From an uncultured delta proteobacterium (GTDB lineage Bacteria > Desulfobacterota > Desulfobacteria > Desulfobacterales > JAFDCJ01): a stretch of DNA of 64,000 nucleotides. The position numbers were made by a program, and so were the translations under genes. Positions 58,986-63,822 of the stretch are shown here, piece by piece. Below the pieces are notes generated by a model, which worked only from the letters and a program-made list of their open reading frames with translations, was not told the origin of the DNA and did not search any database. The stretch is from assembly GCA_963769935.1 (NCBI GenBank), contig CAVYNY010000030.1, forward strand, positions 32,001 through 96,000, given 5' to 3'. Every line of letters starts with the position of its first letter. Position 1 is the first letter of the stretch.

Positions 58986-59483
58986 ATGGACCTTAAAGAA
59001 GCTTTTAAAGTAGCGATGCAGGGGGAAATCGAAGGAAGAGAACTTTACGCCGCGGCCGCGGAAAAAGTATCCGATGCCAAGGCCAAAAAGGTCTTTTCAA
59101 ATCTGTCCAAAGAGGAAAACCTGCATTTCGAACATTTGCAGAAGCTGGCCCAGTCCCATTTCGAAGGCAAGCCGGTCGTTATCCCCCAGCTGGCGAAGAT
59201 AGAAACCTTTGGTGATGCCGAGAGCCCTATTTTTACGCGGGAGTTTAAAGATTTTGTCAAGGGACGGCATTTTGAAATTGCCACCCTGTCTATCGGCGTG
59301 AAGCTGGAACTGGAATCTTCCAAATTCTACCGCGAAATGGCGGAAAGCACGGAAGATAAATCACTGAAGGACTTTTTCCGCTATCTGGCCGACTGGGAAA
59401 ATGGGCACTACCAGGCGTTGAAACAGCAGCTCGGTTTTCTCCGGGAACACTACGAGCTTCAAAACAGTATGTTCCGGTTTTAA
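58986..59483 (+). CDS. Rubrerythrin-like / ferritin-family diiron protein (no rubredoxin domain)
   Basis: Two E..G/S..Y...EExH repeats (EENLH, WENGH). Confidence 0.85.
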   Translation: MDLKEAFKVAMQGEIEGRELYAAAAEKVSDAKAKKVFSNLSKEENLHFEHLQKLAQSHFEGKPVVIPQLAKIETFGDAESPIFTREFKDFVKGRHFEIATLSIGVKLELESSKFYREMAESTEDKSLKDFFRYLADWENGHYQALKQQLGFLREHYELQNSMFRF

Positions 59484-60138: not shown

Positions 60139-61863
60139 ATGACCACAGTTATTATCGTAATTGGTTTTGCCCTTTACCTGTTGCTTTATTTTACTTACGG
60201 GAAGAAAATTGAAAGGGACGTTTTGAAGGTTTCGGACGACAATAAGGCGCCGTCCGAAACTCTCTATGACGGCGTTGATTACATACCGGCACGACGGGCG
60301 GTGCTCTTCGGACATCACTTTGCCTCCATCGCCGGTGCAGCCCCAATTATCGGGCCCGCCATCGCAATCTGCTGGGGCTGGCTTCCCGGCCTGCTGTGGG
60401 TTTGGTTCGGCAATGCCTTTATCGGAGCCGTTCACGATTATCTGGCGCTGATGTCCTCAGTGCGCTATGACGGCAAGTCGGTTCAGTTTGTCGCTTCGGA
60501 CCTCATCGGCAAAAGGACCGGGACCGCTTTTTACTGGATCGTCTTTTTTCTTTTAATTCTGGTCGTTGCCGCCTTTGCCGCCATTATCGGCGGGATGTTC
60601 GTCAGAACCCCGGAAATTTCCTCCGCATACGCATGGAAAATTTTTGCGGCACTCATTTTGGGGACGCTGATCTATCGGGTCAAAATGAATTTTACCGTCG
60701 CCACCATTATCGGTATCATTATGCTGGCCCTGGCCATCTTTCTGGGAACCAAGACCCCCATCACGGCGAGTTACGGCGTATGGATGTGGGTATTTTTCTT
60801 CTACATCATCGTTGCCGCGGCGATTCCCGTCAATGTGCTCCTGCAGCCCAGGGATTATCTCAATTCTTTTCTGCTTTACGCAGGCCTGCTCGTGGGTTTC
60901 GTGGCGGCGATTTTTGCCATCAAGGGGTTTGAAATCCCCGTCTTTTCAAGCTTTTCACCGGTTCTGCTCGGCGGAAAGCCGACCCCCTTCTGGCCGGCAA
61001 TCCCGCTGGTGATCGCCTGCGGATCGCTTTCCGGCTTTCATGCCCTGGTGGCCTCCGGAACCTCGTCCAAACAGCTGACCAAGGAAACCGATGCCCTGGC
61101 CATTGGGTATGGCGCCATGTTCACCGAAGGATTTCTATCCACCATCGTGATCGTATCAATTGCCGGTTTCGGTTACACGGCACTGAAAAACGCCGGGGTC
61201 ACTCCTGAAGCTTTAAATTTCGGAAACTGGGCTGCGGCGTTCACCAAGGTCTCGGCCTCCGTTAAGCTTTCAGCGGCAAACCTTTTCGTTCAATCCTATA
61301 CCGACATGGTTGCCGCCACCTGGCTGAACTTTATACCCGGCATTTATGTAAAGGTGATAGCCGGCATGTGGGTCGCCTCTTTTGCCATGACCACGCTCGA
61401 CACTACCAATCGCCTGGGCCGTTATTGCCTGGTTGAAATGTTGGCGCCGCTCAAGGACCGCGCCACCGGCCTGCACAATGTACTGACGAACCGCTGGGTC
61501 GCTTCCGTGATCCCGGCCGCTATCGGCATCTGGCTGGCCGCATCCGGAAACTGGCTGGTCATCTGGGGCTCATTCGGCGCGGCCAACCAATTGATTGCGT
61601 CCATTGCCTTGATGACCGGCGCCGCCTATGTAGCCAAAAGAATGAAATCCGCTTTCGCCAACATAGCGGTTATTCCGGCCTGGCTGCTGTGGATTACGGT
61701 GACGGCGGGGATTGTCTGGTTCATCTTCAACGTCCAGATCGACGCCATCGCCAAACGGCCCGGACCGGGCTGGACCATCATGGTTCTGCTGGTGGTCATG
61801 TTTGTATTGAACTTCGTATTTATTTACGACTTTATCAAATCAAAATCCTACAAGGTCGAATAG
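60139..61863 (+). CDS. cstA: Carbon starvation protein A family transporter
   Basis: DGVDY.P, FGHHFASIAGAAPIIGP, GAVHDY, LLQPRDY, IACGSLSGFH, TTLDT.R, FGAANQL. Confidence 0.93.
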   Translation: MTTVIIVIGFALYLLLYFTYGKKIERDVLKVSDDNKAPSETLYDGVDYIPARRAVLFGHHFASIAGAAPIIGPAIAICWGWLPGLLWVWFGNAFIGAVHDYLALMSSVRYDGKSVQFVASDLIGKRTGTAFYWIVFFLLILVVAAFAAIIGGMFVRTPEISSAYAWKIFAALILGTLIYRVKMNFTVATIIGIIMLALAIFLGTKTPITASYGVWMWVFFFYIIVAAAIPVNVLLQPRDYLNSFLLYAGLLVGFVAAIFAIKGFEIPVFSSFSPVLLGGKPTPFWPAIPLVIACGSLSGFHALVASGTSSKQLTKETDALAIGYGAMFTEGFLSTIVIVSIAGFGYTALKNAGVTPEALNFGNWAAAFTKVSASVKLSAANLFVQSYTDMVAATWLNFIPGIYVKVIAGMWVASFAMTTLDTTNRLGRYCLVEMLAPLKDRATGLHNVLTNRWVASVIPAAIGIWLAASGNWLVIWGSFGAANQLIASIALMTGAAYVAKRMKSAFANIAVIPAWLLWITVTAGIVWFIFNVQIDAIAKRPGPGWTIMVLLVVMFVLNFVFIYDFIKSKSYKVE

Positions 61864-61948
61864 CTTGACCGATACATTGCATGCATGGTGCCTGGCAGGG
61901 TCAATCGATGCCAGGCACCATGTACTTTCCATGCGGGGGTTAACCTTA

Positions 61949-62230
61949 ATGAAGGTTTCGGTTTTTGATTTTCTCAGAACCGTGTTTTGCGACCTGGACA
62001 ACAGCCACCGGGCGAATGTGTGTTCATTAACGATTATCGAGATGGAAGAACTGCAGAATATTTTTGCATTGCTGTTGCTGGGATCGTTTATTGGGTTGCC
62101 TGCCCCGCCGTCCTTTTTGGCGGTCGAACTTCTGCCGTACATGCAAAAAGAGCTGGAAATCCTGAATAAACGGGCCGGCAGTGCCAATGACATGTTGTCG
62201 GAAATGTTCGGATCGCTTGGGGTCGGCTGA
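61949..62230 (+). CDS. Small CstA/ArsA-associated protein with one hydrophobic segment
   Basis: EELQNIFALLLLGSFIGLPAPP...ELLPYM; stop abuts ATPase start. Confidence 0.7.
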   Translation: MKVSVFDFLRTVFCDLDNSHRANVCSLTIIEMEELQNIFALLLLGSFIGLPAPPSFLAVELLPYMQKELEILNKRAGSANDMLSEMFGSLGVG

Positions 62231-63157
62231 ATGAATTTTTTTTTCTTTACCGGTAAAGGAGGGGTCGGGAAATCCACCCTGGCAGCCGCTTCGGCCTGGC
62301 AGTTGTCTCAAAAGTACCGAGTCTTGATCGTTTCGCTGGATCCGGCCCACAACCTGGGTGATATTTTTGGGGTTGATATTCGGGGCGAACGACGCTTTTC
62401 AGAGTCGCTTCACCTGAAAGAGGTAGATTTCAAGAAACAGGCGAAGGCCTATTTAAAGAAGGAAATCAAAACACTTTCCGACAGTTACAAATATCTCCAG
62501 ACGCTGAATCTTGACACTTATTTTTCCGTTTTGAAATATTCTCCCGGCATCGAAGAATATGCTTTGCTGACCAGCATCGAGGAGACGATTCGCAACGGAT
62601 CCGGTTTCGATTATATCATTTTCGATACCCCGCCAACGGGCTTGACCCTGCGGTTTCTGGCGTTGCCGCAGGTAACCATTACCTGGATCGACCGCCTGAT
62701 TCAAATCCGGCAAAAAATTCTGGAAAAATTTTATACCATCCGCCGGATTAAAGGACCGCAAAGCACCGCAGAAACACTCTTGTCCTTTGACGAAAAAGAT
62801 GACGACATTCTGCAGAAGCTTTATTCTCTCAAATCGGGTTATCAGTCGCTCAGCCGCACCCTTCAGGGGGATGCTTGCTCGATCGCACTGGTCTTTAATC
62901 CGGATTTGTTGTCGCTGAAGGAATCTCTGCGGTTGATCGAAGGACTCGATGAACTGCACCTCCCGCTGCGTTTGCTTCTTCACAACAAGATTTCTCCGAG
63001 CAACCGGGAAATCGCCGAACGGGTGGAAGCCGAAATCGGTAAGGCGGCCGCTGCGCCGTTGATGCGGATTCGCCTGCAGTCGGACTTTCAAAAAGACAAA
63101 ACGTATAGGCTATATGATCTCGAAGAAGATCTTACACCTTATCTTGAGCGGTCCTGA
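62231..63157 (+). CDS. ArsA/Get3-family ATPase (single domain, no metalloid-binding Cys set)
   Basis: GKGGVGKST, SLDPAHNLGD, PGIEE, FDTPPTG..LRFL. Confidence 0.9.
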   Translation: MNFFFFTGKGGVGKSTLAAASAWQLSQKYRVLIVSLDPAHNLGDIFGVDIRGERRFSESLHLKEVDFKKQAKAYLKKEIKTLSDSYKYLQTLNLDTYFSVLKYSPGIEEYALLTSIEETIRNGSGFDYIIFDTPPTGLTLRFLALPQVTITWIDRLIQIRQKILEKFYTIRRIKGPQSTAETLLSFDEKDDDILQKLYSLKSGYQSLSRTLQGDACSIALVFNPDLLSLKESLRLIEGLDELHLPLRLLLHNKISPSNREIAERVEAEIGKAAAAPLMRIRLQSDFQKDKTYRLYDLEEDLTPYLERS

Positions 63158-63165
63158 AGGGAAAA

Positions 63166-63822
63166 ATGTTTGCACACCAAAATATCGTCACCCAGCCTGT
63201 TTTTTTCCTGTTCATCGGCTTTTCCTGCCTGCTGTCAGCCGTCTATTTCTGGGGAAGACGCGCAAATCAACGGCTTTATCTTTCCGCTTTCGCTGATCTG
63301 ACGGATGTGATCAAGCCTGACGATCAGACCTTTACCAATATCGGTGGGGTCGTCGGTTACCACGCCAACTTCATCCTTAAAAAAGAAAGCGTCTTTTCCA
63401 AAGTGGACGCCACCATTACACTGCTTCCCAGGCATTCTCTGCTTTACATGCCCCTCTCGAAACTGATCATGAAATTTGATCGGCTGTTTATCACCCTGTA
63501 CCTGAAAACCGCGCTCGCCGGTGAGGGGCACCTGATTGAAAAGCGCTATGCCGGATTTCGGGCGCCGAAAATAACCAACGCTCCCCGGCTGGAAAAAATT
63601 GAGATCAAATGGGGTAATTACGATTTTTTGCTTTATTTTGAGCAATATAAAATGCGTGATCAACTCATGTCTTTTGTAAAAAAAAACCCAGACCCCGGAA
63701 GCATCCGACATATTGCTATTGTTGCCAGCGAGCGGAAATGCTATCTTTTCATGATACCAAAGCGGGGCAGGGTCAAGGAGAACTTTACACCCGTTTACCG
63801 CTGGCTTGGCTCAGTGTCATAA
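63166..63822 (+). CDS. Hypothetical protein with N-terminal TM anchor; possible CCDC47/DUF1682-like
   Basis: TM followed by YFWGRRANQRL; LLPRHSLL...FDRLFI; 8 nt after ATPase stop. Confidence 0.6.
   Translation: MFAHQNIVTQPVFFLFIGFSCLLSAVYFWGRRANQRLYLSAFADLTDVIKPDDQTFTNIGGVVGYHANFILKKESVFSKVDATITLLPRHSLLYMPLSKLIMKFDRLFITLYLKTALAGEGHLIEKRYAGFRAPKITNAPRLEKIEIKWGNYDFLLYFEQYKMRDQLMSFVKKNPDPGSIRHIAIVASERKCYLFMIPKRGRVKENFTPVYRWLGSVS

Follow-up and report, generated by a model that had tools for sequence, protein, structure and literature searches.

A CstA transporter operon of an uncultured delta proteobacterium encodes a Get3-like ATPase and a small membrane protein, CstY, with a predicted CCDC47/TtfA fold

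Why should a CstA-family secondary transporter be encoded together with a Get3-like ATPase and two small accessory proteins? This question is raised by an operon of an uncultured delta proteobacterium (GenBank assembly GCA_963769935.1, contig CAVYNY010000030.1, positions 32,001 to 96,000), which lies in a stretch of 64,000 nucleotides that is called the window here and whose numbering is used throughout. An earlier sequence-only reading had described four co-oriented genes, the last three tightly packed, and had suggested a dedicated module for membrane-protein biogenesis. Four plus-strand open reading frames are indeed found, cstA, cstX, an ATPase gene and cstY, separated by 85, 0 and 8 bp. 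This arrangement is already known: Castillo & Saier reported it in 2010 together with all four gene names, finding cstX (about 90 aa) and a single-domain homologue of ArsA beside cstA and, in five archaea, cstY as well (PMC2963123). The window holds a bacterial member of that kind and shares with the 2010 cluster a CstA, a CstX of about 90 aa, an ATPase of about 300-330 aa without the ArsA cysteines, a single-TM (transmembrane) CstY of about 210 aa and the lack of arsR; it differs in that its cstY is bacterial and has a predicted CCDC47 fold, whereas the 2010 paper reports cstY in five archaea only and assigns no fold to it. Our naming of CstY after the archaeal protein is provisional and follows size, topology, gene context and, as a lead only, an Atlas neighbour cluster with 70% Archaea (score 0.96). 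What appears to be new is the structural link that our model suggests between CstY, CCDC47 and TtfA, which was not found in the literature searched, supplements and subscription papers lying outside that search. No searched paper names both CCDC47 and TtfA or joins CstA with ArsA and Get3, and the main text of an Asgard structure paper (PMC12962969) contains no mention of CCDC47.

The gene cstY (63166-63822, plus strand) encodes a 218-aa membrane-anchored protein with one TM helix at residues 12-30 (63199-63255, plus strand; hydropathy 2.0). The basic sequence GRRAN follows this helix, which puts the globular domain probably on the cytoplasmic side; G30 and N34 are conserved in at least 90% of 123 diverse homologues. 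Its structure model matches CCDC47 structures over both the membrane helix and the globular domain (PDB 7TM3/7TUT, 9I78 and 6W6L; chain 4 of 7TM3/7TUT was taken to be CCDC47 from the titles of the entries, the residue ranges and the paper on 9I78). CCDC47 is the closest structure to the model, and the likeness extends to its Asterix-holding membrane helix; sequence identity is 10-12%. The same model matches mycobacterial TtfA (PDB 6T84) with a shared fold and topology at 9% identity, which implies that TtfA and CCDC47 share this fold as well. At the level of sequence the signal in the family is weak but recurring. Pfam CCDC47 (PF07946) is the only Pfam match of CstY, at E 0.001 and 18.7 bits, below the gathering score of 27.7; the best score, 26.2 bits, belongs to a CstY paralogue, and precomputed PF07946 labels are carried by a few homologues. 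When the membrane helix is removed, the match is lost in seven of eight proteins and persists at E 0.021 in the eighth. Searches of PDB sequences with three CstY profiles, A1, A2 and A9 (96, 19 and 123 rows), retrieved no CCDC47 chain at E<=10. Over a sample of 301 genomes from the phylum, PF07946 gave eight matches at E<=0.05 and none above its cut-off; the best and one other are cstY, five fall on the C-terminal part of the model (positions 234-319), one is interrupted by stops, and this run did not pick up the cstY of the window. The sequence-only reading had pointed to CCDC47-like motifs in this protein, and these are present, although their spacers had been miscounted: three residues (YLS) separate RL from AF, and ten, not eight, separate SLL from FDRLFI. 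Its view of the fourth protein as CCDC47-like is thus borne out by a predicted helix plus globular domain and by the recurring Pfam signal. By our own estimate, common descent of CstY and the core of eukaryotic CCDC47 is highly probable. If true, such a prokaryotic family would revise the statement by Sundaram et al. 2022 that prokaryotes lack components of the PAT complex (PMC9630114), would offer CstY as a small and tractable model for the CCDC47 globular domain, and would tie CCDC47 to mycobacterial TtfA, which works with the drug target MmpL3.

What does a protein of this fold do beside a transporter? The known roles of CCDC47 depend either on its latch, which blocks Sec61, or on Asterix, which binds helices. 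In contrast to CCDC47 of the eukaryotic PAT complex (PMC9630114, PMC12572126, PMC9816642), CstY lacks both the luminal N-terminal region and the C-terminal latch helices, which contact the ribosome and Sec61 in CCDC47, and it has no recognisable Asterix; it ends where rabbit CCDC47 has residue 394 and the Chaetomium protein residue 364, and the family ranges from 190 to 239 aa. It also differs in sitting in a transporter operon and in its patchy distribution. TtfA (Rv0383c/MSMEG_0736) is an essential, membrane-anchored bacterial protein that serves an RND-type lipid flippase, a specific transporter that needs TtfA to work (PMC6593404). CstY differs from TtfA in being patchy and tied to CstA and, once, to a transporter of the major facilitator superfamily (MFS). 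Because CstY lacks the latch and an evident Asterix while TtfA, of the same fold, is a transporter partner, and because CstY stays beside transporters, next to cstA without cstX or ATPase in genome G181 and, in a distant form, behind an MFS transporter of the lactate type in both G002 and G048, we tentatively favour, at slightly less than even likelihood, an ATP-switched accessory complex of CstY, CstX and the ATPase on the finished CstA. In this proposal, for which we infer all physical contacts, the direction of control and the substrate, CstY would be a partner subunit, anchored in the membrane beside finished CstA, CstX as a membrane adaptor would recruit the Get3-like ATPase dimer, and cycles of ATP would switch or remodel the transporter, not insert it. 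A complex prediction of CstA, CstX and CstY gave CstY a score of 0.00 against a mark of 0.32, which is no evidence either way.

The biogenesis module of the sequence-only reading would instead make CstY and CstX a PAT-like pair of intramembrane chaperones, with the ATPase shielding hydrophobic stretches of CstA, or else of CstX, while these insert and fold. We consider this possible but on balance unlikely, even though CCDC47, with its Asterix-holding helix, is the nearest structure to CstY, and the properties of CstX are one reason. The gene cstX (61949-62230, plus strand) encodes a 93-aa helical protein with an F-x-L-x3-G-x3-G-x-P-x2-P...LLP core. It had been described as hydrophobic, and one hydrophobic stretch is present (residues 41-59, Kyte-Doolittle 1.76), but this is only modest and proline-broken, and the protein is not multipass. 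The structure model (pTM 0.57) consists of helices 2-44, 55-77 and 82-89. In size CstX comes close to Asterix (about 10 kDa, PMC9816642), yet a fold search of the PDB at E<=0.001 returned no match and no likeness to Asterix. Of the 120 listed CstX homologues, 119 were checked by eye and every one carries precomputed PF25952. The cory-CC-star model NF041419 matches CstX weakly, at 27.8 bits against a cut-off of 80. CstX is likely a membrane-surface or re-entrant adaptor. A second reason is that CCDC47 and Asterix are obligate partners (PMC9816642), whereas CstX and CstY occur apart: cstX is found without cstY in many operons, and cstY without cstX in G181 and G048. cstX is also far commoner than cstY: of the 301 genomes, 159 have cstA, at least 46 have cstX-like genes (a lower bound, as the profile misses some) and 14 clearly have cstY, two of which match partly by construction, after three weak partial matches (E 7e-4 to 8e-3) were dropped from 17.

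The lactate-type MFS loci bear on both readings. A distant CstY-like gene (16% identity) lies behind an SfMCT-family lactate MFS transporter at L163:2382-4682 (G002:C1) and L196:7054-9107 (G048:C5). In G002 a second cstX stands between transporter and cstY-like gene, facing a cstA-cstX-ATPase-ATPase operon, and this side-by-side placement of cstX and cstY behind an unrelated transporter speaks for a chaperone pair. In G048, however, cstX is gone and a short cstA fragment is left, while the cstY-like gene is intact (91% identical). Separately, stand-alone genes of the cstX family, with no adjoining cstA, lie directly upstream of nikR (L164:3893-4661, where nikR is confirmed, L165:3057-3784, L166:4651-5442, also L104-L108).

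The ATPase gene (62231-63157, plus strand) encodes a single-domain protein of the Get3/TRC40/ArsA family of 308 aa. Pfam ArsA_ATPase matches it, and one might ask whether it is an arsenite-resistance ATPase that came to lie beside cstA by accident. This is very improbable and already largely refuted. The enzyme is single-domain; TIGR00345 scores 167 bits, above its cut-off of 135, whereas the arsenical ArsA model TIGR04291 scores 83 bits against a cut-off of 650 and covers residues 2-154 only. Residues 2-258 align with the archaeal Get3-like structures 3ug6/3zq6, insert region included, while the alignment with ArsA spans only about 150 residues. It has a single cysteine, as the sequence-only reading had noted; this is C216, and there is none at the ArsA CTTE position. 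The window's contig has no acr3, ArsB-family, LMWPc/ArsC-type or ArsR-type match (the glutaredoxin-type ArsC family was not searched), in agreement with that reading, and the acr3, ArsB-family, LMWPc and ArsR-type matches of this genome lie on other contigs. In a quick tree, which included one ArsA sequence, the ATPases of cstY operons form their own clade (support 99); ArsA, the alpha-crystallin and Bag-like types and the paired CstA ATPases all fall outside it. By its sequence, the protein is a single-domain enzyme of the Get3/TRC40 type, separate from arsenite ArsA, as had been suggested. The same genome encodes a second Get3-like ATPase at G000:C10:222489-223760 (L195), which by tree and length is of the longer alpha-crystallin type and is unlinked to cstA.

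Single domain, insert region and absence of arsenite-binding cysteines are shared with Get3/TRC40 and with bacterial and archaeal Get3-like proteins. The insert would fit a biogenesis module, but Farkas 2019 states that it is no predictor of targeting (PMC6593721). The locus seems to resemble the single-domain groups 9/10 of that study; the part of that paper cited here does not mention CstA. Unlike Get3/TRC40, the window ATPase lacks CxxC, is free of methionine in its groove region (none in residues 60-215), carries a leucine in place of the switch II histidine and has no identified Get1/Get2 partner. Among 90 cstY-operon ATPases, CxxC occurs in none and 70 have at most one groove-region methionine, both of which weigh against a chaperone for membrane segments. 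The nucleotide-binding site is intact, with P-loop GKGGVGKS at residues 8-15 (62252-62275, plus strand) and P-loop and switch I preserved in 90/90. Switch II, DTPPTGL at residues 132-138 (62624-62644, plus strand), reads DT[P/A]PTGL in 90/90, whereas ArsA/Get3 and the PDB homologues have DTAPTGH.

Intact motifs would also suit the proposal of Castillo & Saier 2010 that the ATPase energises CstA, much as ArsA drives ArsB, with CstX as the linker that couples hydrolysis and CstY as a non-essential auxiliary; co-evolution and operon linkage were cited in its favour (PMC2963123). A common variant, cstA-cstX(x1-2)-ATPase-ATPase without cstY (L147-L162), could likewise form an ArsA-like pseudodimer. 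In 14 of 16 fetched cstA-type loci, those that reached far enough, two ATPases and no cstY were found on that strand; the paired ATPases fall in two separate clades, the first with an altered switch II (DLVPLGH), which suggests a heterodimer. However, G181 keeps a CstA from the clade of the window CstA with no operon ATPase. Furthermore, the characterised CstA/BtsT proteins are ion-coupled importers that work without such an ATPase. We therefore regard ATP-energised transport as doubtful. The 2010 question on ArsA-like ATPases beside CstA is sharpened to one between a steady-state partner and a biogenesis factor.

The operon is more than a chance neighbourhood. Of 159 related loci in GTDB genomes the best 80 were compared, which are at least 53% identical to the query and hence not independent: the ATPase gene adjoins cstY in 80, cstX is there in 77 and cstA in 73, and all missing cases of cstX or cstA are contig ends with less than 1.4 kb of contig upstream. 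Named homologues belong to Desulfobacterales and Syntrophales. In the phylum sample, 10 of 11 other genomes with cstY have all four genes in order and G181 has cstA-cstY only; the four genes are also present in 5/5 metagenome loci. The genes thus co-occur across the genomes sampled. Some loci depart from the standard layout: two full-length cstY paralogues occur in 14 of the 80 (L009, L011, L012, L014, L016, L017, L040, L051, L055, L060, L063, L068, L077, L079), cstA is in tandem in L015 and L064, and in L020 (cstA-cstX-cstY) only a short piece of the ATPase gene is left, with about 50 codons matching. A single Logan record, P0435 (323 aa), is an apparent fusion of a C-terminal ATPase part with CstY and may be an assembly error.

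CstA itself (60139-61863, plus strand; 574 aa from ATG) has at least 12 hydrophobic segments by hydropathy and matches Pfam PF02554 at E 3.5e-123. It is the only cstA of this genome, and a sequence search of the PDB gave no match. In a quick tree it lies in a clade (SH-aLRT 100) with cstY in 17 of 18 sampled rows, these rows having mostly been picked via cstY. That cstY tracks one CstA clade could mean that this clade folds poorly alone, which would suit a biogenesis module. However, most CstA homologues occur without cstX, ATPase or cstY: of 20 further CstA loci, 16 were scored stand-alone (36-43% identity to the window CstA), two have cstX and ATPase, and two were unplaced in the tree. With CstA mostly alone, no latch, no likeness to Asterix, and neither CxxC nor groove-region methionine in the ATPase, the evidence does not support going from homology to a biogenesis module of the PAT/GET kind, and an ATP-driven regulator of CstA, the other option of the sequence-only reading, fits better.

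The cargo is most likely a small carboxylate (pyruvate, glyoxylate, lactate) or a peptide. A small carboxylate is suggested by enzymes for 2-hydroxyacids and 2-oxoacids encoded near the operon and by the precedent of E. coli CstA; the family model NF011590 names CstA a pyruvate/proton symporter. In the E. coli CstA-YbdD pyruvate importer, a CstA-family transporter gene is likewise followed by a small partner gene (PMC5847655), but CstX has no Pfam match to the YbdD family and no Cys-Cys end. Such ends on the E. coli CstA partners (bioRxiv 2022.07.06.499078) raise the thought of metal or cofactor handling, in which the ATPase and the small proteins would carry a metal or an Fe-S-related cofactor to CstA or away from it. 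A PF01883 (DUF59/SufT-like) CxxC gene of about 90 aa lies between ATPase and cstY in L095:5540-5812, L098:5596-5871 and L146:5667-5939, with a look-alike in L096:3409-3684; 14 more loci have a related gene, with no family match at 1e-10, close by on the opposite strand, and the position of stand-alone cstX before nikR points the same way. However, the window operon has no DUF59 gene, its ATPase type has no conserved cysteine and has lost the switch II histidine, and the CstX alignment shows no conserved cysteine. Metal or cofactor handling is accordingly improbable.

A profile search with CstY gave 407 clusters at 50% identity, of which the best 150 representatives were listed; named family members include TA06, WOR-3, Bacteroidota and Auribacterota, and Atlas neighbours, as a lead only, include Chloroflexota and archaea. 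We speculate that CstY may be a branch of this broad bacterial and archaeal family (at least 407 clusters, with TtfA a distant member) that is ancestral to CCDC47, and that the cstA operon is a client-specific forerunner of PAT/GET, in which CstY and CstX would hold marginal CstA helices, the Get3-like ATPase would deliver or release them, and the ribosome latch was added later in eukaryotes; we rate this combined scenario as unlikely.

In the surroundings of the operon, a scan upstream revealed no convincing promoter or terminator. An antisense open reading frame at 62453-63091 has no family match and was discounted as a shadow. A rubrerythrin/ferritin-like gene lies upstream of cstA at 58986-59483, and a relative of it is found near the operon, often downstream, in 18 other loci.

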